In this document: one piece after another, positions 1 through 14,621 of the stretch | Layout of the letters: each line of letters opens with the position of its first letter | How positions within the stretch are numbered: the stretch's first letter is position 1 | Assembly: GCA_958448515.1 (NCBI GenBank) | Contig: CAUDEF010000001.1 | Coordinates: 15,488 to 79,487 of the forward strand | DNA length: 64,000 nt | Source: an uncultured Phascolarctobacterium sp. | GTDB lineage: Bacteria; Bacillota; Negativicutes; Acidaminococcales; Acidaminococcaceae | Reading direction: 5' to 3' | Notes under the pieces: model-generated | What the model was told of the DNA's origin: nothing | Databases searched by the model: none | What the model saw: only the letters and a program-made list of their open reading frames with translations | Program-made: the position numbers and the translations under genes

Positions 1-347
1 CATCACGTATTTCAGAAGCTATATTGATTGTAGATTGACCCTTATGAACTATTGTGCTTTTTGCTGTCAATTTTCCCATACCACGGATATTGCTTATATA
101 ATTTATATTCATACTCAAAGTCTGAGCCATCTTGCCGACAGAAGCGCAGGTAATACCAGTCAAAGAGTCTGCCAGAGCAGCCATAGCACCCCCATGGACA
201 CCAAGCCAATGATTGGTGTGTATATCAAAATCAATAGGCATTTCTAAAGTTGTTCCACCACAATGCACTTCTTTGATGCTTATCTTAAGAACATTCATAA
301 ATGCATTGCCGCTCCACATATTTCTGATAATTTCTTCAGGACTCATA
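1..347 (-). CDS. PaaI/hotdog-fold thioesterase (partial; C-terminus lies beyond the left edge)
   Basis: Minus-strand ORF runs off the window. ATG at 347 is preceded by AAGGAGA. My translation, MSPEEIIRNMWSGNAFMNVLKISIKEVHCGGTTLEMPIDFDIHTNHWLGVHGGAMAALADSLTG, has the PaaI-type 'HGG' core. Confidence 0.6.
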
Positions 348-1462: not shown

Positions 1463-2413
1463 CTAAACTATATCAACAGGAAATTCCTTATTATCAATCA
1501 AATATAAACCTATGGTAACTGATAATAAATCAGCACTACCGCCTGGGCTGATTCTTCTGCTGCAGAAATATTCTTCAGCCTGTTTAATCTTTTCCCAGCC
1601 CTGGCTGGTAAAAACACTGCCTGCAGATATTATATCTTTAGCAATAATTTTGACATTTTCTGCCATTTCTACATCAGTTCTCCATATTACATTACTATCT
1701 TCTACAACAGTCATCAGAGAAACCAAACTATGCAATAAGGCATCATTTAAACTCGCACCTTTATTGAAAGCTTCTGTTAAAGCAGGCAGTCCATATTTTA
1801 AAACACTTGGAAAACCTTTCTCCACTTCTCCTCTAATTCCTGTTATACCATATTCTTTATATAATTTTTCTCCAGCAGTCTTTACTTCTGAGTCTAATTT
1901 TTCTAATTCCGACTCAACAAGACCATCTGTCATTTTCATGACTATAGGTATGATATTTTCTTTATCAAATCCCTGATTATATGCGTACCCGGCAGCAGCA
2001 CTGACAAGTCCGCCGGCAAACAAAATTCCTCTTTGTGTATTAACTCCCTTTGTTACTCTGAGGAGCTCTTTTTCAGCTAATATACCATAAGATCTTACTT
2101 TAGCAAACAGTTCTTTTTCAGAACCGCTATGAGTCATTCCAATATCCTGTAAATCATTAAACGCTTGTCCCAAAACAGCAGAACTCATAGCAAAGGTCAG
2201 TATACTCATATCATTATGCGACCCTTTGGACAGTCTGGTAACCAATCCTGGTTTGGGATGTGTACAGACCTCTAACAAAATAGCCTGCGACAAGTACTGA
2301 CTCATCTTACAAAGTTCTGGTTTATGATGAGAAAATTGATACTCATATACTCGTTCCAAACTCTTTTTATTGTATTTGTCTACTCTACATGTCAAACAAT
2401 TCAGACCAGCCAT
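1463..2413 (-). CDS. mdcB: triphosphoribosyl-dephospho-CoA synthase (MdcB/MadG/CitG family)
   Basis: About 300 aa with THPKPGLVTR (the CitG/MdcB 'KPGLV' block). Last gene of the malonate decarboxylase operon. Confidence 0.8.
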   Translation of the reverse strand: MAGLNCLTCRVDKYNKKSLERVYEYQFSHHKPELCKMSQYLSQAILLEVCTHPKPGLVTRLSKGSHNDMSILTFAMSSAVLGQAFNDLQDIGMTHSGSEKELFAKVRSYGILAEKELLRVTKGVNTQRGILFAGGLVSAAAGYAYNQGFDKENIIPIVMKMTDGLVESELEKLDSEVKTAGEKLYKEYGITGIRGEVEKGFPSVLKYGLPALTEAFNKGASLNDALLHSLVSLMTVVEDSNVIWRTDVEMAENVKIIAKDIISAGSVFTSQGWEKIKQAEEYFCSRRISPGGSADLLSVTIGLYLIDNKEFPVDIV

Positions 2414-2463
2414 GACAGTACCAACTTTCTCATCTAAATAATTTTACCGATTTGAGTTTTAAA

Positions 2464-3234
2464 TCAAGCACCCATAATAGCTTTGGTAGCCAGATATAAT
2501 ACGGACGGGCACAGGAGGCAGCCAGTACCGGTATAGAAAGTTGCAGTCATTGCTCCATAAGGAACAAGTTTAGCATCTACTGCAGCAAGTCCTGCAGCAA
2601 CACCGGAAGAGGTACCCATAAGACCACCATAAATCATTGCAGATTGAGGATTGTCGAGCCCAACCATATTTTTTACAAACGGGGTTAAGAGCATAACTGC
2701 AACAGATTTAACTACGCCAGCAGCAATACTGATTGCAATTACATCAGAAGATGCACCAAGAGCCGCACCGGTAACAGGACCTACAACGAAAGTACAAACA
2801 CCTGCACCAATGGTAACCATGGAAATTACATCAGGATATCCCATGAAATATGCCAGCACACAGCCAACAACGAAGGAACTTAATACGCCCATCAACAGGG
2901 ATACTACACCAACAATGCCGCATTTTTTGATTTCACGTAAATCTGCACCAAATGCTGTGGATACGATAGCAAAATCACGGAACATACCGCCGCCCATCAT
3001 GCCAACACCTGCAAACATCGGAATGCTTGCAAGACCTTTGGTTCCGCCGGTAGTAATACCGCCAATATAAGCTAAAATAAGACCTGCAAAAATCGCAATT
3101 GCAGAACCATGAACTTTACCTTTAGTAAGACCAGAAAGCTTATATGTAATAAGAGTAATAACGCCAATTAATAAAAATGCGAATACAAGACCATTGCTTT
3201 GGCAAACCTTTACAAACATAGCTGCAATATCCAT
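2464..3234 (-). CDS. madM: malonate transporter subunit MadM
   Basis: 256-aa Gly-rich polytopic membrane protein. Its ATG lies 1 nt after the madL stop. Size and position match MadM of the Malonomonas mad cluster. Confidence 0.8.
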   Translation of the reverse strand: MDIAAMFVKVCQSNGLVFAFLLIGVITLITYKLSGLTKGKVHGSAIAIFAGLILAYIGGITTGGTKGLASIPMFAGVGMMGGGMFRDFAIVSTAFGADLREIKKCGIVGVVSLLMGVLSSFVVGCVLAYFMGYPDVISMVTIGAGVCTFVVGPVTGAALGASSDVIAISIAAGVVKSVAVMLLTPFVKNMVGLDNPQSAMIYGGLMGTSSGVAAGLAAVDAKLVPYGAMTATFYTGTGCLLCPSVLYLATKAIMGA

Positions 3235-3235
3235 C

Positions 3236-3610
3236 TTACTTCACCTCACCGTTCTTACTACCAAAAACTTTAGCAATAACAGGAATAAGTGCAAAAGCTA
3301 CGGCAACACCTAAGAGACCGCCGCCTATAGCAAGAGGACCACCTTTTATTGCTGCTACTACGTTCTGAATGGAGCTCATAGCCACAACGATAGGAATGTA
3401 CATAGCACTCCAGAATGCAATACCGCTTTGTGCTTTGGAGTCCAACCAACCTTCGTCAATACCTTTGTTAGTTAATAAAATGAGGAACAACATTGCGAAG
3501 CCAACGCCACCTACATTAGCTTTTACTCCAACTAACGCACCAAAAAGGTCACCTAAAAACATACCGACAATATAACAAGCCGCTAATAAAGCAACACCAT
3601 AAATAGCCAT
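3236..3610 (-). CDS. madL: malonate transporter subunit MadL
   Basis: 124-aa protein with four TM segments, immediately upstream of madM. Size and order match MadL. Confidence 0.8.
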   Translation of the reverse strand: MAIYGVALLAACYIVGMFLGDLFGALVGVKANVGGVGFAMLFLILLTNKGIDEGWLDSKAQSGIAFWSAMYIPIVVAMSSIQNVVAAIKGGPLAIGGGLLGVAVAFALIPVIAKVFGSKNGEVK

Positions 3611-3642
3611 AATTACACCACCTTAAGTACAATTTTTTATTA

Positions 3643-3666
3643 TCGCAGCTCTAAAAAGAGCTGCGA
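3643..3666 (-). other. 9-bp stem-loop (tcgcagctc/gagctgcga) between madF and madL, no U-tract
   Basis: Perfect inverted repeat with a 6-nt loop in the 79-nt madF-madL spacer. Confidence 0.45.
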
Positions 3667-3689
3667 AACAACAAAAGGCTTAATTAAAA

Positions 3690-3899
3690 TTATTCAATAA
3701 TAGCGATTACAGTACCAGCGCTTACACGGTCGCCAGGTTGTACTTTGAATTCTTTAATGGTACCAGCTACAGGGCTCGGAACCAATTGTTTCATTTTCAT
3801 TGCTTCCATTACTGCAATTACGTCTTTTACTGCTACTTGATCGCCAACTTCTTTTTCAAAACGAACAATTTTACCAGGTACTCTAGATTTAATTTCCAT
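3690..3899 (-). CDS. madF: biotin carrier protein of malonate decarboxylase (MadF-like biotinyl domain), copy 1
   Basis: 69-aa biotinyl domain with the EAMKM biotinylation motif. GGAGATAATAAAA-ATG supports ATG 3899. The 10-codon upstream extension in the ORF track has no RBS. Confidence 0.85.
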   Translation of the reverse strand: MEIKSRVPGKIVRFEKEVGDQVAVKDVIAVMEAMKMKQLVPSPVAGTIKEFKVQPGDRVSAGTVIAIIE

Positions 3900-3934
3900 T
3901 TTTATTATCTCCTTTATTATGTCAGTCAATTAAA

Positions 3935-4144
3935 TTATTCAATGATAGCAATTACAGTACCAGCACTTACACGGTCGCCAGGTTGTACTTTGAATTCTTT
4001 AATGGTGCCAGCTACAGGACTCGGAACCAATTGTTTCATTTTCATTGCTTCCATTACTGCAATTACGTCTTTTACTGCTACTTGATCGCCAACTTCTTTT
4101 TCAAAACGAACGATTTTACCAGGTACTCTAGATTTAATTTCCAT
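3935..4144 (-). CDS. madF: biotin carrier protein of malonate decarboxylase (MadF-like biotinyl domain), copy 2
   Basis: 69 aa, protein 100% identical to copy 1. Same RBS and EAMKM motif. Confidence 0.85.
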   Translation of the reverse strand: MEIKSRVPGKIVRFEKEVGDQVAVKDVIAVMEAMKMKQLVPSPVAGTIKEFKVQPGDRVSAGTVIAIIE

Positions 4145-4156
4145 TTTTATTATCTC

Positions 4157-4834
4157 CTATTCCAAATAAGCTAAAACTTCTTTTTTATTAATTAAGTCAA
4201 CATCTTGCAGACTTTTACCTAAAACTGTACTGGTATTCATAAAAACTTCTGCAAGCTTTATACCATAGCCATTGGGCAAATCAAGCTCAAAATCCATATT
4301 TATTCCATCTGACAATCTCTTTGCTTCTTCATAAAAGTCAAATAATTTTTTATACTCAGCTGGTTTTACCAGAATATCAATATCAGAATTTTCATCAGTA
4401 TATGGTAATCCGGTTATGAGTTCGAGCCCTGCTGACCCCAGTACACCTACTTTCAAACCATAGGCATCGGCCAGATTTTTAATATCATCAACAACTGCCA
4501 TGCATTTATTGCGCTTGTCATTGTGATAACGTATAACTTCATAAACAGTAACAATTTTTGTTATATCTTGATTTGCTACATAGCTGCCGATGCGAAGTCT
4601 GTTACCATCAACTCTTTTACAATGTACAAATCCGACAGCGACTTTATCATCATCCAAACATTCTCCACGACGTATTATTCCAGGTATTTCTGAAACATCG
4701 TACAGGATTTCTTTGGCTGCGCTCAGTGTCATTTCATTAGTTCTCTTATCTTCGTTTACACATTGCAGAACAAACTCTTTTCCTTTTTCAGAAAGAAACA
4801 CCAAATTATGTCGTTTTAATTTCGTTTTGTCCAT
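4157..4834 (-). CDS. mdcG: malonate decarboxylase holo-ACP synthase (phosphoribosyl-dephospho-CoA transferase, MdcG/MadK-like)
   Basis: GSAGLELITGLPYTDENSDIDILV is the MdcG-type nucleotidyltransferase signature. AAGGCGGA RBS. Overlaps the upstream gene by 19 nt. Confidence 0.8.
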   Translation of the reverse strand: MDKTKLKRHNLVFLSEKGKEFVLQCVNEDKRTNEMTLSAAKEILYDVSEIPGIIRRGECLDDDKVAVGFVHCKRVDGNRLRIGSYVANQDITKIVTVYEVIRYHNDKRNKCMAVVDDIKNLADAYGLKVGVLGSAGLELITGLPYTDENSDIDILVKPAEYKKLFDFYEEAKRLSDGINMDFELDLPNGYGIKLAEVFMNTSTVLGKSLQDVDLINKKEVLAYLE

Positions 4835-5919
4835 ACAGGATCCGCCTTACTGTTTTGCTGATAATCAAGCTGTGCCTGAATCATATCATCAAAAAGCTTA
4901 GTTTTCTCCGGACCTTCGATGATAATAGGATCTTGCTTTATACCACTTATATAATCAGGTACAAGTTCAAGAACTGTATGCTCGGCATTTGTTACAACAT
5001 CAGGACTAACCTTTACAATTCTTCCTTTAATTCTCAAAATGCTTCTGGCAACTCTCCCTAAAGTGACTGCTGATGTAAGTTTTGTCGCCTTAACAATAAC
5101 TTCATATTCCGGATAGCTTCGTTCGCGTCTGTAGGTAATAATTTTCCCATCTCTATTACATACATGGCCGCTGTTAGTTACAGGAAAGCAATCTCCCATT
5201 GGCAGACCACCAACTACCAATTCAAAGAACTCCTGTCCCTTATTTACAGATGTAGGTACAAGTTCAATATCGTCTCTAACTGGTATACCGTCCATGGTTA
5301 ACCAACCAAATTCCTGGCATCCATATAAGTCGTGTACTTCTGCATTAAGTACTTCTTCAGCTATTGGCAGCAGTTCGAGATCAAGAGGAGTACCTGCTGT
5401 CAACAGAACGATATTTTTAGGCAATTCATCTGCAACACCCATATGTTTAGCATCTTCCAAAGCCGCTCTGATAAATGAAGACTCGCCTAAAACTGCATGG
5501 GGCTGAAATTCGTACAAAGCTGCCAAAAAGGCATCTCTGCTTGAACGAACAAGAAAGGACCACTCTATACCATACTTTTTAAAAGCGTCACCAGAAAAAA
5601 CATTTACTAAAGGCGGATAAGTTACCAGAACTCTGTCGCCTGCTTTTAAACCTGCTCTCTCTAAAATTTTAAAAGAGGCTTTTATTCTGTTTGGCATTTC
5701 AGCAAAAGTAACACCAACAATATTTTGAAAAGCAGAAGAACCAGTAGTAAAAGTCAAGTACGCAAAATTAAGAGGTGTATGAACTTCCTCAATAGTATGC
5801 GCAGCAGTGGGACCTGCTATTCCCTTATCTGCCAGAGTTCTTCTGGGCATATCCTCAAATTTTGGTGCTGAACCAAAATCCTTTACCAAACTGCAAATCT
5901 CTTTAAGAATACCGTCCAT
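4816..5919 (-). CDS. adenylate-forming (PaaK/F390-synthetase-like) enzyme at the madH position; candidate ACP-SH:acetate ligase
   Basis: 367 aa with FTTGSS and HDLYGCQEFGW blocks, reminiscent of phenylacetate-CoA-ligase-like enzymes. AGGAGGG RBS. Occupies the slot between the carboxyltransferase genes and mdcG, as madH does in Malonomonas. Confidence 0.55.
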   Translation of the reverse strand: MDGILKEICSLVKDFGSAPKFEDMPRRTLADKGIAGPTAAHTIEEVHTPLNFAYLTFTTGSSAFQNIVGVTFAEMPNRIKASFKILERAGLKAGDRVLVTYPPLVNVFSGDAFKKYGIEWSFLVRSSRDAFLAALYEFQPHAVLGESSFIRAALEDAKHMGVADELPKNIVLLTAGTPLDLELLPIAEEVLNAEVHDLYGCQEFGWLTMDGIPVRDDIELVPTSVNKGQEFFELVVGGLPMGDCFPVTNSGHVCNRDGKIITYRRERSYPEYEVIVKATKLTSAVTLGRVARSILRIKGRIVKVSPDVVTNAEHTVLELVPDYISGIKQDPIIIEGPEKTKLFDDMIQAQLDYQQNSKADPVWTKRN

Positions 5920-5944
5920 ACATACCCTCCTAAGATTGACTTAA

Positions 5945-6835
5945 TTATGCATTAATATATTTGTCAGCAACTGCTGCAAATTCATCATACACTTTGTTAA
6001 TGGTTTCCATACGTTTTGTACGGCCGCCACGTTCGTTACCAAGGATGCCACGACCCCACGGACCAAGTAATTCAAACTTGCCCTCTGCTTTTAATGCCGC
6101 AACTTCCTTGATATGTTTAATAATTACATCACGCATATCTTCCGGTTTTTCAACGATTTCCTGTACACCGCCAAGTTTATAGAAGAAGTCAACACCTGCA
6201 GCAAATACAGGATTTGTTTTGGACAATTCTTCAAGACGTTCAATGTCCATTTTGGTAATACGGGAAATAGAGGTAATAGGCATAACGTGAATCATTGTGC
6301 CATATTCTTTAGACAAAGCAAGAATATGGTCAGCCTGCAAGCCATGGCACAGGAACGCACCGGAAATAGCACGGCCGATAACCATTGCAATAATAGGATG
6401 GCCAGCTTTTCTTGCTTCAGCCAGTGCAAGCTGATATCCACCGGTAGATTTATTCATACCAGCAATTTCTTCCATTTTGCCAGGGCCATTGCCCGGGGTG
6501 TCAACAACAAGCACGATCGGGCGTTTTTCAGCCAGCGGTTTGTCTTTATCAGCTTCCATTGTGCGGTAAACAGCAGTTGCCATTTTATAGCCTTCTTCAA
6601 GACCAATTACGCCGCCAAAAACAACCGGAAATCTTTCATTGAATGCATATGCATCGTTGCCGATAACGGTAACTGTCATGCCTTCCATTTTACCGGTACC
6701 AACTACAGAGCCAGGACCATACTCAGGATCAAAATCAAAAGCTCCAATTTTATTTTCTTCGAAAGAGCCTTCATCCAAAATCATGTCAATCGCATCACGG
6801 CCGCGGCCAATCATAGTCATTTCTAATTCTTCCAT
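5945..6835 (-). CDS. mdcE: malonate decarboxylase carboxyltransferase subunit (MdcE gamma / MadD)
   Basis: 296-aa AccA-like carboxyltransferase domain. AAGGAGG RBS. Follows mdcD. Confidence 0.8.
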   Translation of the reverse strand: MEELEMTMIGRGRDAIDMILDEGSFEENKIGAFDFDPEYGPGSVVGTGKMEGMTVTVIGNDAYAFNERFPVVFGGVIGLEEGYKMATAVYRTMEADKDKPLAEKRPIVLVVDTPGNGPGKMEEIAGMNKSTGGYQLALAEARKAGHPIIAMVIGRAISGAFLCHGLQADHILALSKEYGTMIHVMPITSISRITKMDIERLEELSKTNPVFAAGVDFFYKLGGVQEIVEKPEDMRDVIIKHIKEVAALKAEGKFELLGPWGRGILGNERGGRTKRMETINKVYDEFAAVADKYINA

Positions 6836-6854
6836 GTTTGTTACCTCCTTTGCC

Positions 6855-7814
6855 TTATGCGCGAACTCTGCGTTTTACAACTTTCAGGAATTCAGCAGTG
6901 CTGAGTTCAGGAAGTTCAGCAGGATTTTCGTTACCAAAATGTTTCCACAGATCCATGGAATCTTTCGGTTGCATTTCACCAACAAGTTTTACTAATTCTT
7001 GTTGTTCTTGAACTAATTTCAAAGAACCGATGCGGCGCATTTCTTCGATCTCAGCCATCGGGATGTCAGCAACTTCTGCCAATACATTGTGGAAGTCACC
7101 GATTTTATCTTCAACAAGATAGTTGCAGTCTTGAATAATGTATTTATGTTTCGCACCAGTTGTACGATATACAAGAGCTTTGTTGGAAGCATCAAATTCA
7201 TCTTTACCCATTTCCTGTTCAATTACTTCAGGACCGGTAAGACCAATACGACCTTCTTCATTCATAACAATTACGTCAGTTGCTGCGGCAACGAAGCCCA
7301 TACCACCAAAGCAGCCTACTTTACTGCCTACAACAGAAACAATAGGAATGATACCACGGCAGTCCTGGAAAGCATCCATAACTTCAGCATGTGCTAAAAG
7401 ACCAGCATTTGCTTCATGCAAACGAACACCACCGGTTTCATAAGAAATAGCAACCATAGGACGACGAGCATCATAATCTTCAGGATGTTTTTCCTGCAGT
7501 TCTTTAGCGGTTTTGAGAGCTAAGCGAATGGTTGCAACCATTTTGCCGCCGTTAACTTCACCAATAGCACCACCAATGAATTTGCCTTCCATGGATACAA
7601 CAAACACAGGATGTTTGCCGATAAGACCAACACCGGTTACAGTACCGTCATCAAACTCAACAGCTGCACCTAATACAGGAAGGTGAGGGCTGCAAAAACG
7701 ATCAATAGGGCTCAGAAATTCAGTAAAAGTTCCTTTATCAACTAAGCCCAAAGCACGTTCACGTGCATTTGCAGAAAAAAAGCTGCTGTTAGAAAGTTCA
7801 GTCCAACTTTTCAT
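6855..7814 (-). CDS. mdcD: malonate decarboxylase carboxyltransferase subunit (MdcD beta / MadC)
   Basis: 319-aa AccD-like carboxyltransferase domain. Its AGGAGG RBS lies inside the end of mdcC. Confidence 0.8.
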   Translation of the reverse strand: MKSWTELSNSSFFSANARERALGLVDKGTFTEFLSPIDRFCSPHLPVLGAAVEFDDGTVTGVGLIGKHPVFVVSMEGKFIGGAIGEVNGGKMVATIRLALKTAKELQEKHPEDYDARRPMVAISYETGGVRLHEANAGLLAHAEVMDAFQDCRGIIPIVSVVGSKVGCFGGMGFVAAATDVIVMNEEGRIGLTGPEVIEQEMGKDEFDASNKALVYRTTGAKHKYIIQDCNYLVEDKIGDFHNVLAEVADIPMAEIEEMRRIGSLKLVQEQQELVKLVGEMQPKDSMDLWKHFGNENPAELPELSTAEFLKVVKRRVRA

Positions 7815-7816
7815 TA

Positions 7817-8143
7817 TTATTCAACCTCCTTAGCATTAGCTTCAGCCAAAGCTTGACGTAATCTCATATATACAACGATAGGAGTTGCATTGTCATCGTT
7901 GATTTCAATGCTGATATTACCAACACCGGTATCAACAACAAATTTTTCCAGCATTTTTTCCCAAACTGCATCAAAGCCCTTTACAGGAGTTACAACTTTA
8001 GCTTTAACATTGCCACCCAGATCTTGTTTTACAAACAAAACTTCCAGATCACCGGAACCAGTTACGCCCAGATGAGACCATTCTTTATCGATGGTTTGGG
8101 TAGCTTCTGATTTGAATTCAAATTCCAATACTTGTAATGCCAC
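7817..8143 (-). CDS. mdcC: malonate decarboxylase acyl carrier protein (MdcC delta / MadE)
   Basis: 108 aa with GVTGSGDLEVLF, which holds the prosthetic-group Ser. GTG start with AGGAGG RBS. Confidence 0.85.
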   Translation of the reverse strand: MALQVLEFEFKSEATQTIDKEWSHLGVTGSGDLEVLFVKQDLGGNVKAKVVTPVKGFDAVWEKMLEKFVVDTGVGNISIEINDDNATPIVVYMRLRQALAEANAKEVE

Positions 8144-8158
8144 TTTAATCTCCTCCTA

Positions 8159-9832
8159 TTACCAGTTTCTGAATTTTGCAGGCGGATTATACAAGCCTTT
8201 AGACCATACAACGAGGTCATGTACATTTTTAGCAGCCAACATAGAACGGTTAGCACGGCTAATGTCAATGCCAAGGTCTTGTGCTGTTTTAATAACGCCA
8301 AGCTCACGCAGACGTTTGGTTTCTTTCGGATCGGCTTTCATACCAACTTCGGTGAAACCTGCAATACCACGGATTGCAGCAGTACGTTCTTCCATGTTGC
8401 GGCATTTCGGCAGATAAGCAATACCTTCTTCAGTAATGATATGAGTAAGGTCATCACCGTAAATCATTACAGGTTCAATTGCCAGGTTTGCATTTTTAGC
8501 AAGTTTGAACGCATCAAGTTCTTCAACAAATCCAGGAGCAAGTTTTTCACGGAAGGTTTCAGCCAGTTGTACAACAAGGCGTTTACCACGGCGAACAGGT
8601 CCCCAAAGTTCAGAATTAAGAGCATATTCTTCACCGCATTTGAGCCATGCGTCAGAAGAATGACGACGACCTTTAGGATCGCAGCCCATGTTAGGAGCAC
8701 CACCAAAGCCTGCTACGCGGTTAGCAGTAGCTGTGGAGCTGTTACCATACGGGTCAATTTGCAGAGTGCCGCCGATGAACATGTCGATAGCGTAATGACC
8801 TGCAGTTTGAGAGAATGCACGGTTAGAACGCATGGATCCGTCAGGACCAACAAAGAAGATATCGCTGCGAGCAGCAACATATTCATCCATACCTAATTCA
8901 CCACCAAAGCAGTGAACAGATTCTACCCAGCCACATTCAATAGCCGGAATCAGAGTCGGATGCGGATTTAAAATAAAGTTAGTGCAGATTTTGCCTTTCA
9001 GACCTAATTCTTCACCATAGGTAGGAAGCAGCAATTCAATTGCAGCAGTATCGAAACCAATGCCATGGTTCAGAGATTTAATGCCATATTCGCCATAAAT
9101 ACCTTTAATAGCCATCATGCCTTTCAATACTTGAGCATCGGTAATAAGTGCCGGGTCACGAGTAAAGAGAGGTTCAATATAGTAAGGTTTCGGAGATTGG
9201 ATTACATAGTCAACCCAGTCGCCAGGAATATCTACACGAGGCAATTCGTCAACAATTTCGTTAACTTGTGCAACAACAATACCTTGACGGAATTTAGTTG
9301 CTTCAACAATTGCCGGGGTATCTTCAGTACTGAAACCGGTATAAAGGTTACCGTTTTTATCAGCTTTAGTTGCAACTACCAATGCAACACGAGGAGTCAA
9401 ATCTACGAAATAACGTCCATACAATTCAAGATAGGTGTGAATTGCGCCTAATTCCAGTTTACCTTCTTGCAAAAATTGAGCTATGCGACCTGCCTGCGGT
9501 CCGGAGAAAGACATATCCAATTTTTTTGCAATTCCTTTTTCGAACACATCAAGATGTTCAGGAAGAGTAAGTACAGATTGAACCATATGCAGATCATGTA
9601 CTTTTGCAGGATCAACCTCACACAGGCATTTAGCCAAAAAGTCAGCCTGTTTTTGGTTGTTGCCTTCGATGTTTACTTTATCAAAAGGTCTGATAACTGC
9701 TTCCAATAAAGCAACTGCATCTTTTGCATCAACAATTTTTCCTTCCTTGACGTAGGGAGCGGCAGCTTTAGCACGTTCCAACGCGTCTTTTTTCAGAGTG
9801 TCCCACTCACGAGTGATTCCTTTGAACTCCAT
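8159..9832 (-). CDS. mdcA: malonate decarboxylase alpha subunit (acetyl-S-ACP:malonate ACP transferase, MdcA/MadA)
   Basis: 557 aa, the size and position of MdcA/MadA. First gene after the 9881..9927 terminator. AAAGGAGAG RBS. Confidence 0.85.
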   Translation of the reverse strand: MEFKGITREWDTLKKDALERAKAAAPYVKEGKIVDAKDAVALLEAVIRPFDKVNIEGNNQKQADFLAKCLCEVDPAKVHDLHMVQSVLTLPEHLDVFEKGIAKKLDMSFSGPQAGRIAQFLQEGKLELGAIHTYLELYGRYFVDLTPRVALVVATKADKNGNLYTGFSTEDTPAIVEATKFRQGIVVAQVNEIVDELPRVDIPGDWVDYVIQSPKPYYIEPLFTRDPALITDAQVLKGMMAIKGIYGEYGIKSLNHGIGFDTAAIELLLPTYGEELGLKGKICTNFILNPHPTLIPAIECGWVESVHCFGGELGMDEYVAARSDIFFVGPDGSMRSNRAFSQTAGHYAIDMFIGGTLQIDPYGNSSTATANRVAGFGGAPNMGCDPKGRRHSSDAWLKCGEEYALNSELWGPVRRGKRLVVQLAETFREKLAPGFVEELDAFKLAKNANLAIEPVMIYGDDLTHIITEEGIAYLPKCRNMEERTAAIRGIAGFTEVGMKADPKETKRLRELGVIKTAQDLGIDISRANRSMLAAKNVHDLVVWSKGLYNPPAKFRNW

Positions 9833-9880
9833 TACGGTCTCTCCTTTCTGATTAAGAAAAGCTTTTCATATATCAAGACC

Positions 9881-9927
9881 AAATAAAAAAGAGAGCATAC
9901 CACAGGTATTGCCTGTCATATACTCTC
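9881..9927 (-). terminator. intrinsic terminator/attenuator between the first HutP paralog and mdcA
   Basis: Minus strand reads GAGAGUAUAUGACAGG-CAAU-ACCUGUGGUAUGCUCUC (15 pairs, 1 mismatch) followed by UUUUUUAUUU. It lies 48 nt upstream of the mdcA ATG. I see no promoter between it and mdcA. Confidence 0.7.
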
Positions 9928-9954
9928 AATCACCATTATGAATTTTTATTTAGT

Positions 9955-10401
9955 CTATATATGCATTACACCCAAGCCAGCACGATCATGATTAGTCATA
10001 TAATGCAATGCCGACTTGCCAAACAACGCAACAGCTATCCAATTCTCATCCCTTGCTACAGCAATCTTCAAAGCTAAATTTGCACTGGTACTTACACTCA
10101 CTAAAATCCCTTTTTTAGCTTCCTCTGTAGCATGTATCAACGCATGGATATGACTGCTCGTTTTCTGTATAATACCAGAATTTAAACTAGCTCCAATAAC
10201 AGCACGATTTATTTTTTCATTGAAATCATCGAATGATGTTCTGCCACCGACTTCAGTAACAACTGCTTTAAAGCCATTTTTAGCAACCATTTTCTTTACC
10301 GCTTCCTCGTCATATAACGACTGAGTAAGAGCTAACAGCATCGCTGCTGTTCCTGCACTGTTAATGCTGCTTTCAAGTAAAACTCTAGAGTTCTCCGCCA
10401 T
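9955..10401 (-). CDS. HutP-family RNA-binding antiterminator-like protein (paralog 1)
   Basis: 148 aa from ATG 10401 (GAAGGAGAGA RBS 6 nt upstream). The blocks HALIHATEEA, WIAVALFG and C-terminal GLGVMHI match B. subtilis HutP HALYHAT.EA, WIAVSLYG and GVGINHI (from memory). Confidence 0.75.
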   Translation of the reverse strand: MAENSRVLLESSINSAGTAAMLLALTQSLYDEEAVKKMVAKNGFKAVVTEVGGRTSFDDFNEKINRAVIGASLNSGIIQKTSSHIHALIHATEEAKKGILVSVSTSANLALKIAVARDENWIAVALFGKSALHYMTNHDRAGLGVMHI

Positions 10402-10419
10402 ATTCAATCTCTCCTTCTC

Positions 10420-11163
10420 TCAACGGATACTGATTTCTCCAAAATCAAAACTTCTTTGTATTCCCTGCGCGTTGCGAATTAAAAGTGCTCCCTGAGGATT
10501 CATATCTATAGCAACGCCCTCAAAAATTATCTTGTCATCATCTTTTACCAAAACATGCTTTCCTAATGTACAGCTGTGAACCTTCCATTCATCCAGCAAC
10601 TTATCCGGTCCATTTGTTAACCACTCATCATACAACAAAGATAACTCTTCTAAAATATGTTGCAAAACTACATCACAAGAAATGTCCATACCGCAGGCAA
10701 TTTTCAAAGAAGTTGCAGTATGTTTTAACGCTTCCGGAAAATCTTCATCATGCAAATTTACATTAACGCCAATCCCCAAAATAGCGTAGTCAACCATTCC
10801 ACGTTCATCCAATTTCATTTCTGACAATATGCCACAAATTTTCTTGCCGTCAAACAACAAATCATTAGGCCATTTTATTCTGGCCTTACCAGTGTTGTAA
10901 AGCTTTGAAATTGCTTTTACAACACTGACACCAGCCAATAAAGTCAGTTGCGCAACAATTTCCGGGTTTATACATGGTCTTAAGATTAAAGAAAACCATA
11001 ATCCTCCTTCCGGAGAGTTCCATATTCGCTGCATTCTGCCGCTGGCCTTACATTGCCGTCTGGCAACAATCACAGTACCCTCAGGAGCTCCGCCAAGAGC
11101 TTTCTCAACAGCGGTAATATTAGTCGATTCTAAAACATCATAATATTGAAGCTGTATTTTCAT
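10420..11163 (-). CDS. birA: biotin--protein ligase (group I, no N-terminal HTH)
   Basis: SGRMQRIWNSPEGGLWFS fits the BPL GRGRxxRxWxSPxG motif. At 247 aa it is too short to carry a repressor domain. Confidence 0.85.
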   Translation of the reverse strand: MKIQLQYYDVLESTNITAVEKALGGAPEGTVIVARRQCKASGRMQRIWNSPEGGLWFSLILRPCINPEIVAQLTLLAGVSVVKAISKLYNTGKARIKWPNDLLFDGKKICGILSEMKLDERGMVDYAILGIGVNVNLHDEDFPEALKHTATSLKIACGMDISCDVVLQHILEELSLLYDEWLTNGPDKLLDEWKVHSCTLGKHVLVKDDDKIIFEGVAIDMNPQGALLIRNAQGIQRSFDFGEISIR

Positions 11164-11198
11164 TATGATTACCTTCTATAAAATAAAACTAACTTAAA

Positions 11199-12413
11199 TT
11201 ACTTTACCATACCAATAGTGGAAATGAATACACCACAAGCAATAGCAGATACAATTACGCCACCGATATTAGCACCCATTGCAACCGGGAATACAATTGC
11301 AAACGGATCTTCGTCTTCTGCAGCATGTTGTGCAATTTTAGCAGTAGTAGGTACGCAGGATACGCCGGCAATACCAACAACAGGGTTGAAGTCACCTTTT
11401 TTGAACCAGTAAACAACCAGACCACCAAGCAGACCAACAGCACCAGAAATTGCCAGAGCCAAAATGCCCAGCAAAATAAGAGGAGCAACTTTAGGATTCA
11501 GCAGGGTAGAAGCTTCGCACAAGGTACCAAGCAACAGGCCAAGAGCCAAAGTACCAGCATACAGCAGGGTGTTTTCAATGAAGTCCTGATACGGAATGAT
11601 TTCTGCTTCTTTAATAGCCATACCAAGGAAGAAGGACATAATAAGAGGAGCAGCCATTGGCAGCAGGATGCACAGCAGTGCACAGCATACAAGAATAAAG
11701 ATAAATTTCTTAGCTTTAGGCACTTCAGGCGCATCAAAAATAATATCATTGCCTCTCATACGTTTAGGAATAATCATTTTTACAAGGTAAGGATAACCTG
11801 CATAAGTAAGGCTCAGATACAGGTAAGCAATTACGGAAATAGGAACAAACAGATGCGGAGCAAGCATCAGAGAAGTGAACAGTACCATCGGACCGTCCGC
11901 ACCACCGATAGAAGCAACAGCCGCAGCTTCCGGAGGAGTCAAGCCAAGATGTACACCTAAAATCAAAGTAACAAAAGTACCAGCTTCTGCAAAGATTGCA
12001 ATAATTATAGAAGTCCAGGGATTTGCAAGAATAAAGCTGATTTCGCACATAGCACCAACGCCCATGAATACGAAACAAGCAACAAGGCTGTTACTGAAAG
12101 TTAAATTATAAATAGGCTGCAGGAAGTTAATCTGCATAATATCAACTAACTGATTAGGATCAGAAATCATAGGATCAAGGAACAAGGTTCCCAGTCTGCC
12201 GCCTTCAAAGAACAATACGCCGCAGTTGATAGCAATCATACCGATACCCATAGGTACCATGATCAAAGGTTCCAAAGTACGTTTAAATCCCATGTATGCA
12301 AGTACGAAGCCAAATGCAATAAGGAGTACCCTTGCAATAGCAATTACAGGATCTTGAACAAATAAGCTGGCTACGCCAGGAAATAACATTGACAAAATAT
12401 TAGCTGTATCCAT
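11199..12413 (-). CDS. madB: Na+-translocating carboxybiotin decarboxylase beta subunit (MadB; OadB/GcdB/MmdB family)
   Basis: 404-aa polytopic membrane protein with the SIGGADGPMV block, which holds the conserved Asp of the OadB family. Confidence 0.85.
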   Translation of the reverse strand: MDTANILSMLFPGVASLFVQDPVIAIARVLLIAFGFVLAYMGFKRTLEPLIMVPMGIGMIAINCGVLFFEGGRLGTLFLDPMISDPNQLVDIMQINFLQPIYNLTFSNSLVACFVFMGVGAMCEISFILANPWTSIIIAIFAEAGTFVTLILGVHLGLTPPEAAAVASIGGADGPMVLFTSLMLAPHLFVPISVIAYLYLSLTYAGYPYLVKMIIPKRMRGNDIIFDAPEVPKAKKFIFILVCCALLCILLPMAAPLIMSFFLGMAIKEAEIIPYQDFIENTLLYAGTLALGLLLGTLCEASTLLNPKVAPLILLGILALAISGAVGLLGGLVVYWFKKGDFNPVVGIAGVSCVPTTAKIAQHAAEDEDPFAIVFPVAMGANIGGVIVSAIACGVFISTIGMVK

Positions 12414-12544
12414 TATTGATCCATCCCTTCTCCATTAGAACTTCCGCCCATTACTTTATTGAGCAGGACTACAGCACCAATCATAAATAAAGAGATCGCT
12501 GCGGTAAACAAATAAGAAAAAGCCGCGTATAACTCAACGCTCAT
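12413..12544 (-). CDS. small single-TM subunit, OadG-like / decarboxylase-associated membrane peptide
   Basis: AAGGGAGA RBS precedes ATG 12544, giving MSVELYAAFSYLFTAAISLFMIGAVVLLNKVMGGSSNGEGMDQ. The stop overlaps the madB ATG (ATGA). Confidence 0.5.
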   Translation of the reverse strand: MSVELYAAFSYLFTAAISLFMIGAVVLLNKVMGGSSNGEGMDQ

Positions 12545-12612
12545 AATTAATTCTCCCTTCTTAAATATCTTACTTTCCAGATAGATTAATGTCTGCAATT
12601 TCCGGACATAGC

Positions 12613-12660
12613 AAACAAAAAAAGAGACACAGCAATAGAATTACTCTATCTCTCCGTCTC
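12613..12660 (-). terminator. second, imperfect terminator-like hairpin in the madB leader
   Basis: Minus strand reads GAGACGGAGAGAUAGAG-UAAU-UCUAUUGCUGUGUCUC (13 pairs, 2 mismatches) followed by U7. The 5' arm is rich in GAG/UAG. Confidence 0.45.
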
Positions 12661-12750
12661 CTGTATTTATCTGGTAGGTAAAATCTCTCAAAACACTATT
12701 TATTTTTTGTCTTTTTATTATGAAGGTTGATATTAGAAAGTTAAATCATG

Positions 12751-12800
12751 ATAAAAAAACAAAAAGAGACTGATGATTACTACTCAATCACTCAGTCTCT
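12751..12800 (-). terminator. intrinsic terminator/attenuator in the leader of the madB sub-operon
   Basis: Minus strand reads AGAGACUGAGUGAUU-GAGUAGU-AAUCAUCAGUCUCU (14 bp, one bulged G) followed by UUUUGUUUUUUU. Confidence 0.8.
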
Positions 12801-12801
12801 A
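12783..12801 (-). promoter_or_regulatory. NAG triplet repeat set 2 (UAG-N5-GAG-N5-GAG), candidate HutP-type RNA site overlapping the terminator 5' arm
   Basis: Minus strand reads TAGagactGAGtgattGAG, read directly from the sequence. Confidence 0.45.
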
Positions 12802-12828
12802 AATATGTAATTTTAAGAGTTTAAATAA

Positions 12829-12847
12829 CTAATACACTCATTCTCTC
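12829..12847 (-). promoter_or_regulatory. NAG triplet repeat set 1 (GAG-N5-GAG-N5-UAG), candidate HutP-type RNA site
   Basis: Minus strand reads GAGagaatGAGtgtatTAG, about 10 nt downstream of the predicted transcription start. Confidence 0.4.
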
Positions 12848-12856
12848 TTGCCTCAT

Positions 12857-12885
12857 ATTCTAATATAACGACACACTTTTGTCAA
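12857..12885 (-). promoter_or_regulatory. sigma-70/SigA-type promoter of the madB sub-operon
   Basis: Minus strand has TTGACA (12885..12880), a 17-nt spacer and TAGAAT (12862..12857). Confidence 0.7.
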
Positions 12886-12916
12886 TATTAATTTTTTACA
12901 TGACTTTAACATGCAG

Positions 12917-13363
12917 TTACTTTTCAATATGCATAGTACCAACACATACTCTGCGATGATTAGTACTGTAATAAAATGCAGAATATCCTGAAAAAGCTAC
13001 CGATATCCATTTATCTTTTCTGACTATCGCTACCTTAACAGCCACATTAGCCTTCATCACAGAGCTAATAAAAAATCCCCTGCCAGCTTCCTCTGCCGCA
13101 TGTATAACAGCATGAATATCTGATTCTTCTTTTTCTATAAGCTTTTTGTTCAGAGCAGCACCAATGATACTAGTTATCAGTTTTTTAGAAATTTCTTCCT
13201 GATTACCGCCAATTTCTGTAACTACACATTTATAACCATGTTTTTCACAAAGCAATTTTAAATTATTCTCTGCACGTATAGTCGTAGTCATAGCTAAAGA
13301 AACTGCTACAGACTGTACATCTGCTAAAAAACTTTCAATAAGCTCCTGATAATTAAAATCCAT
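12917..13363 (-). CDS. HutP-family RNA-binding antiterminator-like protein (paralog 2)
   Basis: 148 aa from ATG 13363 (GAGGGA RBS 7 nt upstream), the same length as paralog 1. Blocks HAVIHAAEEA, WISVAFSG and C-terminal CVGTMHIEK. The upstream codons in the ORF track lie inside a palindrome. Confidence 0.75.
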   Translation of the reverse strand: MDFNYQELIESFLADVQSVAVSLAMTTTIRAENNLKLLCEKHGYKCVVTEIGGNQEEISKKLITSIIGAALNKKLIEKEESDIHAVIHAAEEAGRGFFISSVMKANVAVKVAIVRKDKWISVAFSGYSAFYYSTNHRRVCVGTMHIEK

Positions 13364-13384
13364 CTCAAAATCCCTCATTCTCTT

Positions 13385-13430
13385 ATAGTATAAAATAGTA
13401 TTTATCAATAAATACTATTTTATACTATAT
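13385..13430. repeat. perfect 22-nt-arm AT-rich palindrome at the 5' end of HutP paralog 2
   Basis: The sequence tatagtataaaatagtatttat-ca-ataaatactattttatactata lies between the putative -10 box and the start codon. Confidence 0.85.
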
Positions 13431-13456
13431 TATACTCTATCTTCTCCCCCCCGCAA
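13429..13456 (-). promoter_or_regulatory. putative promoter of HutP paralog 2
   Basis: Minus strand has TTGCGG, a 16-nt spacer and TATAAT. The -10 box abuts the palindrome. Confidence 0.45.
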
Positions 13457-13464
13457 GCATATGT

Positions 13465-13501
13465 ACACAAAATCAAATTACTGAGTAATTTGATTTTGTG
13501 T
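13465..13501. other. perfect 16-bp hairpin upstream of the HutP paralog 2 promoter
   Basis: acacaaaatcaaatta-ctgag-taatttgattttgtgt. No clear U-tract on the minus strand. Confidence 0.6.
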
Positions 13502-13552
13502 ATTCTATTTTACGCGTTAATTTCGTTAATTTTTTATTTTATGTTACTGCAC

Positions 13553-13580
13553 AAAAAGGATGGCTGCGCCATCCTTTTTT
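13553..13580 (-). terminator. intrinsic terminator after map (symmetric A/T flanks, could act both ways)
   Basis: aaaaaggatggc-tgc-gccatccttttt, a perfect 12-bp stem. Confidence 0.8.
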
Positions 13581-13592
13581 CTCTTTACCCTC

Positions 13593-14459
13593 TTAATAAG
13601 TCAGTATCTCCGGTCCGTTTTCTGTTATTAAAATTGTGTGCTCCCATTGAGCAGAAAGACTGCCGTCCTGAGTATAAACAGTCCAGTCGTTAGACGCATC
13701 AATAAATACATCCCTGCGTCCTGCATTAATCATCGGTTCAATAGTAAAAATCATTCCCGGCACCAAAACCATGCCTGTTTTGCGTTTTCCTACATGGCAT
13801 ACAAAAGGTTCTTCATGAAATTCCACGCCAACGCCATGTCCGCCAAATTCGGTAACTACGGAATAGCCATGCTTTTTAGCAAGTGCAGAAACAGCTGCGC
13901 CGATATCACCAAGATAGCCCCAAGGCTGCGCAGCCTCAACGCCACGCTTTAAACACTCTTTGGCAATAGCTACCAGATCTTTGGCTTTTTTATCAACCTT
14001 ACCAACGGTAAACATTCTTGAAGCATCAGCATAATAGCCATTGTAGATAGTAGATACATCTACATTAACAATATCACCACTGCGCAAAATATCCTTTTCG
14101 CTGGGAATACCATGGCAAACCTGATCGTTGATAGAAGTGCAGACACTTTTAGGGAAACCGCAGAAACCCAGTGGCGCAGGAGTTGCACCTCTGCTGATAG
14201 TGTAATCGTATACAAGCTTATCAATCTCAGCAGTAGACATACCGGTCTTAATATTTTCAGCAACCAGATCCAAAACAGCTGTATTAATTTCGCAGGCTTT
14301 ACGGATACCCTCTATCTGAGCAGGAGTCTTAATCATTTCTCTGTCGGGAACTTCTGCTCCCTGTGCTTTCAGCAAAGCAATTTTATCATCAATAGCTTTA
14401 TGGCATTCGCCATAGGGGGCACCACTGCCGCACCAACATAATTCTTGTTCCATTTTCAT
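13593..14459 (-). CDS. map: type I methionine aminopeptidase with N-terminal SEC-C zinc motif
   Basis: CWCGSGAPYGECH is the SEC-C motif. MetAP metal-site blocks are present: CHGIPS, DIVNVDVS, GGHGVG, TIEP, WEHT. AAGGAGA RBS precedes ATG 14459. Confidence 0.9.
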   Translation of the reverse strand: MKMEQELCWCGSGAPYGECHKAIDDKIALLKAQGAEVPDREMIKTPAQIEGIRKACEINTAVLDLVAENIKTGMSTAEIDKLVYDYTISRGATPAPLGFCGFPKSVCTSINDQVCHGIPSEKDILRSGDIVNVDVSTIYNGYYADASRMFTVGKVDKKAKDLVAIAKECLKRGVEAAQPWGYLGDIGAAVSALAKKHGYSVVTEFGGHGVGVEFHEEPFVCHVGKRKTGMVLVPGMIFTIEPMINAGRRDVFIDASNDWTVYTQDGSLSAQWEHTILITENGPEILTY

Positions 14460-14621
14460 TCTCCTTACAAAAATCATTCTAATTTCATATTATATCATAC
14501 AAAAAATATTCTGCATAAAATTTATTGTTACCCTGCCTTTGCTTGTGGTAAAATTATTTTATGATTGTTTTTAAGATAAAAACCATCTTTAAACACTAAA
14601 TACATACAAGGAGACTGAAAT

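Follow-up and report, generated by a model that had tools for sequence, protein, structure and literature searches.

HutP of Bacillus subtilis binds two XAG-rich sites that flank a terminator stem and blocks formation of the stem (PMC2425495). A 2025 review describes HutP for the Bacillus hut operons only. TRAP (MtrB) in Bacillus trp attenuation is also a ligand-activated oligomer that recognizes GAG/UAG triplet repeats in a leader and so determines whether the terminator forms (PMC2425495). Its fold is unrelated, however, and it promotes termination and reads 11 triplets with 2–3-nt spacers.

The malonate decarboxylase regulators MdcR (LysR-type) and MdcY/MatR (GntR-type) are DNA-binding transcription factors. 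We know of no RNA-binding antiterminator among the malonate regulators and, to our knowledge, a HutP-like gene has not been described in the mad cluster of Malonomonas rubra or in other malonate decarboxylase clusters. The initial annotation knew of no HutP-type control of a decarboxylase sodium pump, and our literature search for malonate decarboxylase found none either.

Here, we analyzed a 64-kb window, the whole 64,000-nt stretch of Phascolarctobacterium DNA, and consider its mad locus likely to be a HutP-type, ligand-gated transcription antitermination switch for the biotin-dependent, Na+-pumping mad operon. The enzyme system is that of M. rubra, with equivalents of madA/B/C/D/E/F/G/H/L/M. 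The locus resembles the B. subtilis HutP/hut system (1wmq, 1vea, 2gzt; PMC2425495) in the family, fold and metal-binding His triad of the regulator. In both, the regulated structural genes are preceded by an intrinsic terminator, and the regulator gene is found immediately 5′ of that terminator in the same orientation. Purine-rich AG repeats occur upstream of the terminator 5′ arm and in it, and both systems have an upstream site I as well as a terminator-proximal site.

The two systems differ in serving malonate decarboxylation rather than histidine use, in having three terminators versus one, and in a site I–T1 linker of ~45 nt versus 12–17 nt. The box is GNGA-N2-4-GAG with AUARYGG here but (NAG-N4)x3 in hut. 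Moreover, one hutP copy here sits inside the operon past two terminators, and this lineage carries a second paralog.

Results

The locus, all features of which lie on the minus strand, encodes two proteins that are genuine members of the HutP family and share its fold. As initially annotated, both are 148-aa ORFs, hutP-A within the operon at 9955..10401 and hutP-B upstream of it at 12917..13363. With the Pfam HutP model, whose cutoff is 25 bits, they score 118 and 107 bits (E values of 3.3e-34 for hutP-A and 8.4e-31 for hutP-B), and they are 42% identical. The motifs HALIHATEEA/HAVIHAAEEA, WIAVALFG/WISVAFSG and GLGVMHI/CVGTMHIEK are found in hutP-A/hutP-B. Both ATG starts are RBS-supported and favoured by homolog alignment, while the longest mechanical ORFs begin at TTG slightly 5′ of them.

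A PDB sequence search retrieved B. subtilis HutP (BsHutP) at E 2.6e-5. The AF2 model of hutP-A (pLDDT 85) best matches BsHutP 1wmq/1vea in Foldseek (TM 0.65–0.77), and no other fold came near in score. Both proteins, ~27–30% identical to BsHutP, fall far under the equivalog cutoff for true HutP, and neither is a hut-operon ortholog.

A comparison of the ligand pocket with that of HutP, as had been suggested, gave a divided picture. The metal-binding triad is kept: positions matching BsHutP H73/H77/H138 are invariant in both paralog groups (H84/H88/H136 in hutP-B), and that matching E81 is nearly so (one Q). In contrast, positions matching T56, R98, T99 and E137, which we take to be RNA or histidine contacts, are replaced in the alignment, and an 8-residue loop is deleted relative to BsHutP. 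Hence, residue conservation is no argument for RNA binding.

The operon begins with a small 43-aa hydrophobic protein (12413..12544) that has no Pfam match but precedes madB in all related loci at 62–88% identity. It is followed by madB for the Na+-translocating carboxybiotin decarboxylase subunit (11199..12413; TIGR03136 641 bits, cutoff 597; Pfam OAD_beta) and a birA-type biotin-protein ligase (10420..11163; TIGR00121 187 bits; Pfam BPL_LplA_LipB and BPL_C) in which the Pfam/NCBIfam profiles detected no DNA-binding domain. The first gene past hutP-A and its terminator is mdcA/madA for the malonate decarboxylase alpha subunit (8159..9832; TIGR01110 956 bits).

The remainder (1463..8143) comprises ACP (madE), carboxyltransferase madC/madD, a madH-like gene, mdcG, two tandem biotin carriers (madF), madL, madM and citG/mdcB by Pfam and NCBIfam. 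For the madH-like gene, the MadH_C family match comes from its ortholog in related loci; the ORF in the window itself has only a weak AMP-binding match. As first noted, the locus has no annotated hut genes. Translating the window in all six frames revealed no HutH or HutU signature motif either.

The mad operon promoter (12857..12885) is the near-consensus TTGACA-17-TAGAAT of the initial annotation. It is of sigma-70 type, matches at 11/12 positions and is the region's best site. TTGACA-16..18-TAnnnT occurs at the equivalent place in nearly all orthologous leaders. Three intrinsic terminators follow, and they are real and kept at orthologous positions in ~40 related loci. A simple consensus terminator scan missed all three because of their bulges. 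The leader folds at z = −4.4 and the T3 region at z = −6.0 versus shuffled sequences.

T1 (12753..12801) has its 5′ arm and GA box UAGAGACUGAGUGAUUGAG at 12783–12801, its stem at 12766–12799 and its U-tract at 12753–12765. It folds at −15.1 kcal/mol, the stem being followed by UUUUUGUUUUUUU. The 5′ arm GAGACUGAGUGA is kept in 28 unique orthologs, with the loop and 3′ side variable. T2 (12612..12666; −15.3 kcal/mol) consists of the GA box AUACAGGAGACGGAGAGAUAGAG at 12644–12666, a stem at 12624–12660 and a U-tract at 12612–12623, and its stem is followed by U7GUUUG. The T2 box GAGACGGAG is conserved across orthologs and is preceded by a cobalamin riboswitch in most single-hutP species. T2 belongs to this riboswitch in many species, so HutP control need not cover every terminator.

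T3 (9881..9939; −22.1 kcal/mol) has the GA box AUAAUGGUGAUUGAGAG at 9923–9939, a stem at 9891–9927 and a U-tract at 9881–9890, with U6AUUU after the stem. From its end to the mdcA ATG (9832) is 48 nt, with no promoter-like site in between, in agreement with the initial annotation. Of the unique Phascolarctobacterium hutP–mdcA spacers, 35/37 contain T3. Within it, A.A..GG..A...AGAG is invariant and UGG almost so. The stem-base block GAGAG/CUCUC is invariant while the upper stem is free to vary, and the unpaired segment AUAGUGGNGAU 5′ of the stem is conserved as strongly as the stem base. T3 is missing in loci L043 and L045, where merely 15–25 nt separate hutP and mdcA, and is not detectable in L035 and L041.

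Between T2 and the first gene lies a conserved hairpin (12590..12615) with an invariant loop GUCCGGAA. Its stem covaries, with 81% of cells paired versus 27–56% when slid and double changes in 7/8 pairs. No Rfam family accounts for the leader.

A GA-rich box of about AUARYGGNGAYNGAGNG, with the core GNGA-N2-4-GAG, is found just past the promoter and again at every terminator, where it occupies the 5′ flank or arm. The promoter-proximal one, site I (12829..12847), reads GAGAGAAUGAGUG then UAG, ~9–11 nt past the −10 hexamer, with the core match at 12835–12845. Its orthologous box GAGA-N2-4-UGAG has the same offset in 23 unique leaders. Site I and the T1 and T2 boxes hold fixed positions in all leaders, and the boxes stay conserved while the upper stems of the terminators vary freely.

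Relative to all locus DNA, the core box shows 20-fold enrichment in the leaders and 28-fold in the hutP–mdcA spacers, by a definition made post hoc from the same sort of sequences as those counted. Of the 24 terminator-like hairpins identified in the window, counting both strands, T1–T3 alone have the GA box on their 5′ flank or arm. For the pattern GNGANNGAGNG, which was defined post hoc on four of these sites, 6/7 window matches fall within 9923–13382 on the minus strand against 3.1 expected for the whole window.

The proposed binding code, in which NAG triplets spaced by 5 nt come in two groups of three, is not conserved. Both sets are exact at 12829–12847 and 12783–12801, the second being the T1 5′ arm, but the code recurs in just 4/29 site-I orthologs and 6/27 T1 orthologs. 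The B. subtilis code, two copies of three NAG triplets 4 nt apart, is absent and a 7-nt period is not enriched. The conserved element is instead the bipartite box GNGA-N2-4-GAG with its AUARYGG 5′ extension.

The co-occurrence of hutP and mad genes, suggested as a check, is tight in Phascolarctobacterium (Negativicutes) and extends across phyla. hutP lies between birA and mdcA in every one of the ~40 Phascolarctobacterium loci recovered. Outside this genus, it is found between madB and mdcA in Hominifimenecus, which we take to be a Lachnospiraceae genus, in a Cetobacterium record, presumably of the Fusobacteria, and in one or two further lineages. In all related loci, the hutP-A ortholog has birA or madB on one side and mdcA on the other. 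The leaders from distant phyla (L042–L045) bear the same boxes on their terminators. A Clostridium MAG homolog, 52% identical, resides in a non-mad operon laid out as box–terminator–transporter–hutP–box–terminator–catabolic genes, as in the mad locus.

Discussion

Transcription from the mad promoter would meet T1 and T2 in the leader and then T3 between hutP-A and mdcA. We infer that an activated HutP-family protein binds the single-stranded GA boxes. If it works as B. subtilis HutP does, a hexamer could use its two faces for site I and a terminator box. A protein on the box would keep the 5′ arm unpaired and so let RNA polymerase read through. Such HutP-like blocking predicts a conserved GA box overlapping the 5′ side of the terminator, as seen.

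HutP-A or HutP-B could instead bind the boxes and act mainly on the stability of the mRNA or the initiation of its translation, and could thereby autoregulate through the box-like sequences over the RBSs of hutP-A and hutP-B, with the terminators as constitutive partial attenuators that set subunit stoichiometry. Two GNGANNGAGNG matches do overlie the RBS regions of hutP-A (10409–10419) and hutP-B (13372–13382), GA boxes look like Shine-Dalgarno sequences, and some lineages dispense with T3. We nevertheless find this improbable, as the conserved boxes are always at a terminator 5′ flank or arm or at the transcript 5′ end, lack consistent placement at structural-gene RBSs, and the RBS matches upstream of hutP-B are not kept in L007–L013. 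About as improbable is a leader acting in cis, riboswitch-like or as a protein-independent attenuator, or read by another trans factor, the HutP-like protein being a mad accessory such as a metal- or ligand-binding factor. The box is short, unstructured and repeated at 3–4 places, with no conserved aptamer-like fold and no Rfam match. RNA-binding antitermination is the only known function of the small HutP family (~100 clusters at 50% identity), and the combination of box, terminator and hutP recurs in a non-mad operon. An accessory role would accord with the unconserved RNA-contact residues, the embedding of hutP among enzyme genes, in some lineages 15–25 nt from mdcA, and the other leader RNA elements, namely the GUCCGGAA-loop hairpin and, in other species, the cobalamin riboswitch.

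Least probable of all, the conservation would be an artefact of close kinship and terminator base composition (GAGAG/CUCUC stems), and the terminators ordinary operon punctuation of no regulatory significance. One genus supplies most of the compared loci and the invariant GAGAG belongs to the stem base, but the unpaired AUAGUGGNGAU is conserved alike while loops, upper stems and flanks have diverged past alignment. The boxes also recur in other phyla on unrelated stems. Moreover, if T3 were strong and unregulated it would silence the pathway, since the first enzyme gene starts 48 nt beyond it and no promoter intervenes.

In the antitermination switch that we favour, the effector is probably a metal-chelating small molecule other than histidine, since the metal His triad is kept and the histidine-holding residues are not. 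Malonate is the obvious candidate, though a guess. The locus suggests that control by the HutP family is not confined to the one operon for which it has been described, but reaches a further pathway in several phyla.

Lying downstream of T1/T2 and upstream of T3, hutP-A would provide both positive feedback and a gate on the enzyme genes mdcA through mdcB. Most species have hutP-A alone, so with the sole hutP downstream of T1/T2 the model requires leaky read-through. hutP-B, which follows the MetAP terminator and a promoter region of its own, lies directly upstream of the mad promoter and may supply the first sensor molecules like hutP in the Bacillus hut operon. It is a lineage-specific addition. 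Its orthologs occupy the same position in L007–L013 at 54–61% identity and are more distant in L036–L038.

Results

Organization of the malonate decarboxylase locus

All features relevant to the proposed switch, together with the genes described here, lie on the minus strand of the window. The MetAP gene (13593-14477) is followed by a terminator, and the upstream paralog hutP-B (12917-13363) sits between it and a TTGACA-17-TAGAAT promoter (12885-12857), which the initial annotation had picked out and which is the best-scoring site of the region. A leader of ~310 nt separates this promoter from the gene of a 43-aa small protein (12413-12544), and then come madB (11199-12413), the biotin-protein ligase gene birA (10420-11163), the in-operon paralog hutP-A (9955-10401), a 122-nt spacer and mdcA (8159-9832). 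The order after mdcA is ACP, madC, madD, madH-like, mdcG, two tandem biotin carriers, madL, madM and citG/mdcB, and an AEC-family (MdcF-like) transporter gene (362-1345) follows mdcB.

Because all five NCBIfam malonate-decarboxylase equivalogs (TIGR01110, TIGR03136, TIGR03130, TIGR03133 and TIGR03134) exceed their cutoffs in the window, the cluster is assigned to the Malonomonas type, a predicted biotin-dependent and Na+-pumping malonate decarboxylase. The Pfam matches are MdcG, Biotin_lipoyl twice, MadL, MadM and CitG. MadH_C is matched by the orthologous gene of related loci, and the window's own ORF gives a weak AMP-binding match only. The nearest protein relatives are from Phascolarctobacterium, placed in Negativicutes by the taxonomic labels.

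The 69-aa biotin carrier gene madF is present in two near-identical tandem copies (3690-3899 and 3935-4144, minus strand), a duplication also found in the related loci L001-L006. A TTGACA resembling a promoter element lies in the spacer between mdcB and the AEC transporter gene (1346-1462), as does a GC-rich hairpin. The transporter gene might have a transcript of its own and encode a carrier of malonate or acetate.

HutP-family proteins

Both ORFs span 148 aa from RBS-supported ATGs and carry the motifs for which they had been called HutP paralogs. The Pfam HutP model (PF09021, cutoff 25) agrees with this call, giving 118.3 and 107.3 bits (E-values of 3e-34 and 8e-31) over its entire 128-position profile. 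HutP-A and HutP-B share 42% identity, and a PDB sequence search returned HutP as the sole match (E = 2.6e-5). In the structural comparison, the best 11 Foldseek PDB matches of an AF2 monomer model of HutP-A (pLDDT 85.3, pTM 0.83) are all HutP, including those of B. subtilis and Geobacillus, with E-values of 8e-9 to 2e-7 and TM of 0.62–0.77, and the next fold comes at 3e-3.

Known HutP forms a homohexamer, a trimer of dimers, with two RNA-binding faces, and the proteins described here may do likewise. The family is small: at E<=1e-3, a search of 1.84 billion proteins gives about 100 cluster representatives (50% identity). Most of these carry the C-terminal H-[DE]-R-x-G-L-G-x-M-H signature of the present paralogs.

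We take H73, H77 and H138 of B. subtilis HutP (BsHutP) to be its three-histidine ligands of divalent metal (Mg2+). These metal-ligand roles were reportedly described by Kumarevel et al. in 2005. A MAFFT alignment with BsHutP places H86/H90/H138 of HutP-A and H84/H88/H136 of HutP-B at these positions, which are invariant in 14 homologs, and the position of E81 is E in 13 of the 14 and Q in the other. L-histidine is presumably held in BsHutP by R88, R98 and their neighbours. R98 aligns to A, and R98, T99, E137 and T56 are all replaced in the HutP-family proteins here; a 4-residue gap falls at R88, whose counterpart may be K/R, and an 8-residue loop of BsHutP is deleted. From this alignment, the metal-assisted ligand site is probably retained for a ligand other than histidine.

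Judged by sequence and gene neighbourhood, the two paralogs are not hut regulators. With NF002838, the HutP equivalog of NCBIfam, they reach 36.1 and 20.4 bits, where the cutoff is 155. Their neighbours are mad genes, birA and MetAP with no linkage to hutH/U/I/G, and a light test by six-frame translation of the window detected neither HutH MIO nor urocanase motifs, in keeping with the initial remark that hut genes are missing.

Terminators and leader RNA

The three terminators proposed initially, T1 and T2 in the mad leader and T3 between hutP-A and mdcA, are stable folds (−15.1, −15.3 and −22.1 kcal/mol, respectively), each with a proper U-tract. They were detected by a fold-based scan and missed by a simple terminator scan because of bulges and loop limits. 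The leader (z = −4.4) and the T3 region (z = −6.0) both fold better than every shuffle. Rfam gave nothing relevant at the gathering threshold in the whole window or at E<=1 within 9800-13600.

Mutually exclusive structures, which had been suggested for checking, did not appear in the MFE and centroid folds, where T1, T2 and T3 stay formed. The pairing of CUCUU with site I, the promoter-proximal GA-rich box, is weak and confined to the two-paralog clade. An antiterminator helix is not required by a HutP-type mechanism.

Of 37 unique hutP-mdcA spacers, 35 contain T3. The upper stem and loop of T3 vary in sequence and length between species, and indels keep the upper stems from being aligned by MAFFT. 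The GAGAG/CUCUC base of the stem and the 14 unpaired nt preceding it are nearly invariant, with a consensus of AUAGUGGNGAU. T3 is missing from L043 and L045, where the gap is 15–25 nt, and none was detected in L035 and L041.

The leaders also share a plan. Site I, GAGA-N2-4-UGAG, starts 9–11 nt past the −10 hexamer of the promoter, AUARYG-GAGACUGAGUGA lies ~45 nt beyond it as the 5′ arm of T1, and GAGACGGAG(A/U)G is at T2.

Between T2 and the first gene there is another hairpin (12590-12615, minus strand) with an invariant 8-nt loop, GUCCGGAA, containing the palindromic UCCGGA, and it recurs at the same position in the L001-L039 leaders. Its stem covaries, with 81% of cells paired versus 27–56% for slid partners and with both-side changes in 7 of 8 pairs. 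It might bind protein as a second site or make a loop-loop contact.

GA-rich box

The conserved RNA unit is a bipartite box with a core of GNGA-N2-4-GAG and a 5′ AUARYGG extension. Relative to 1.2 Mb of locus DNA counted on both strands, the core is enriched 20-fold in the leaders and 28-fold in the hutP-mdcA spacers. The pattern GNGANNGAGNG has seven matches in the window, six of them within 9923-13382 on the minus strand. Among 24 terminator-like hairpins on both strands of the window, T1, T2 and T3 are the only box carriers. The same kind of box is found on terminators in the mad leaders of distant lineages, for example AUAAAGGUGACCGAGGGAAAC... in L045, and in L040, a locus of another kind described below.

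The initial annotation had read the RNA sites as NAG-N5-NAG-N5-NAG. Both sets do occur at their places in the window, but the code is not conserved: triplets with 5-nt spacers are present in 4 of 29 site-I, 6 of 27 T1 and 3 of 34 T3 orthologs, and those with the 4-nt spacers of B. subtilis in 0–1 orthologs per site. The strict model of three NAGs with equal spacers was rejected, as no spacer of 2–7 nt is conserved over these orthologs. No enrichment is seen at an AG-AG distance of 7 (z = 1.2), unlike at 6, 8 and 10, in analysis windows that were selected by the box itself and with GAGAG runs that leave the register ambiguous. CsrA-like GGA sites were also dropped, because GGA is missing from site I and T3.

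Box-like sequences, GAGAAGGAGAG (10409-10419) and GAGAATGAGGG (13372-13382), lie on the minus strand over the RBSs of hutP-A and hutP-B, respectively. They could serve translational autoregulation or merely resemble Shine-Dalgarno sequences.

Gene linkage across genomes

The suggested co-occurrence of hutP with mad genes is borne out by the gene order small-madB-birA-hutP-mdcA, which places hutP between birA and mdcA in every Phascolarctobacterium context recovered. HutP-A has 454 database relatives and HutP-B has 11. An upstream hutP-B precedes the mad promoter in the window and L007-L013, and more distantly in L036-L038, including P. faecium DSM 14760. Since it is found in a subset of the loci, hutP-B is regarded as an add-on and hutP-A as the ancestral operon partner.

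Outside the genus, a HutP-family gene lies between madB and mdcA in L042 (Hominifimenecus, which we take to be a Lachnospiraceae genus), L043 (a record of Cetobacterium, presumably a fusobacterial genus), L044 and L045. L040, from a Clostridium MAG, has a 52%-identical hutP-A homolog in an operon other than mad, with genes of an AEC transporter, hutP, amidohydrolase_2, a TRAP-like protein and Zn-ADH. The nearest relative of its HutP (P0141, 75% identity) is in a mad locus, so the regulator of L040 appears to have been co-opted for a different pathway.

The L040 module (5860-7500) runs as box, terminator, AEC transporter gene and hutP, then a further box and terminator, and lastly the amidohydrolase_2, TRAP-like and Zn-ADH genes.

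Discussion

The arrangement resembles that of BsHutP: downstream of the regulator gene comes an intrinsic terminator, whose 5′ arm holds purine-rich repeats, and then the regulated genes. The position of hutP-B upstream of the leader is that of hutP in Bacillus. Unlike the BsHutP target, two sites of three NAGs with 4-nt spacers, the present RNAs do not follow that pattern. BsHutP binds two XAG-rich sites flanking the terminator stem and stops stem formation (PMC2425495). A HutP-like mechanism predicts a short single-stranded motif that opens the transcript, recurs on the 5′ side of several terminators and is co-inherited with a HutP-family gene across operons and phyla, as is the case for the box.

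Binding at the box would block the 5′ arm of the terminator and, in the case of T3, the five base pairs adjoining the U-tract. These base pairs are needed for intrinsic termination. With T1 and T2 ahead of its gene and T3 behind it, HutP-A would be made by leak, boost its own production and act as a gate for the enzyme genes. HutP-B would be produced independently, from upstream of the leader, and no terminator was found between hutP-B and the leader. Malonate as the effector is our guess, a reasonable one because a dicarboxylate can chelate the retained metal.

Other explanations were considered. The boxes might act in translational or mRNA-stability control, or belong to an RNA element that works without protein, leaving HutP an accessory role, or be conserved from relatedness alone. 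None of these accounts at once for the location of the boxes on terminators, the conservation of an unpaired segment and the reappearance of the boxes in unrelated operons.

We give about an even chance to the boldest reading, in which a distinct HutP subfamily is devoted to Na+-pumping mad operons in Negativicutes, Clostridia and Fusobacteria as their effector-sensing RNA-binding antiterminator, its effector probably being malonate plus divalent metal. It would read a new ~18-nt GA-rich box instead of the (NAG-N4)x3 code. In this lineage the circuit would have two paralogs, HutP-B as a pre-made sensor and HutP-A as an in-operon amplifier and gatekeeper, and in sister species a cobalamin riboswitch would stand in series. 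The small HutP family would then consist mostly of non-histidine regulators.

To our knowledge, HutP has for 25 years been regarded as the regulator of one system, the Bacillus hut operon. In our literature searches, no work connected HutP with malonate decarboxylase or with an operon other than hut, and nothing relevant came up on antitermination of mad genes or on malonate decarboxylase in Phascolarctobacterium. The initial annotation likewise knew of no HutP-type control of a decarboxylase sodium pump. In a November 2025 review of RNA-binding antiterminators, the HutP entry covers the Bacillus hut operons only. The kind of mechanism is already known, and the regulon, the RNA box, the layout of multiple terminators and two paralogs, and the phyletic spread appear new.

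If antitermination by these proteins is true, the HutP family would have a second and phylogenetically broad regulon, and a different RNA recognition box whose many natural variants could help to dissect specificity. It would also provide a candidate RNA-binding sensor of malonate in Phascolarctobacterium, an abundant group of gut commensals, and the first regulator proposed for the biotin-type mad operons. The two-paralog and riboswitch-in-series layouts would be further cases of layered termination control.

The cobalamin riboswitch (RF00174, 47–48 bits) was located in the mad leaders of L021 (4531-4674) and L014 (4548-4687), between T1 and the GAGACGGAG box with T2, and by eye in most single-hutP Phascolarctobacterium leaders. 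T2 comes after it in most single-hutP species. It is absent from the window and its two-paralog clade.

Upstream of hutP-B on the minus strand, a perfect inverted repeat (13388-13434) with 21-nt arms, ATAGTATAAAATAGTATTTAT-TGA-ATAAATACTATTTTATACTAT, lies over the 5′ UTR, and there is also a 19-bp AT-rich hairpin (13463-13503). Neither is kept in the orthologous regions of L007-L013, so a conserved operator was rejected; the two elements might represent a lineage-specific operator or have been inserted recently. In L015, a Phascolarctobacterium MAG from horse gut, a third and very divergent HutP-family gene (1946-2389; 25–29% identity) is present ~1.5 kb upstream of the mad leader.
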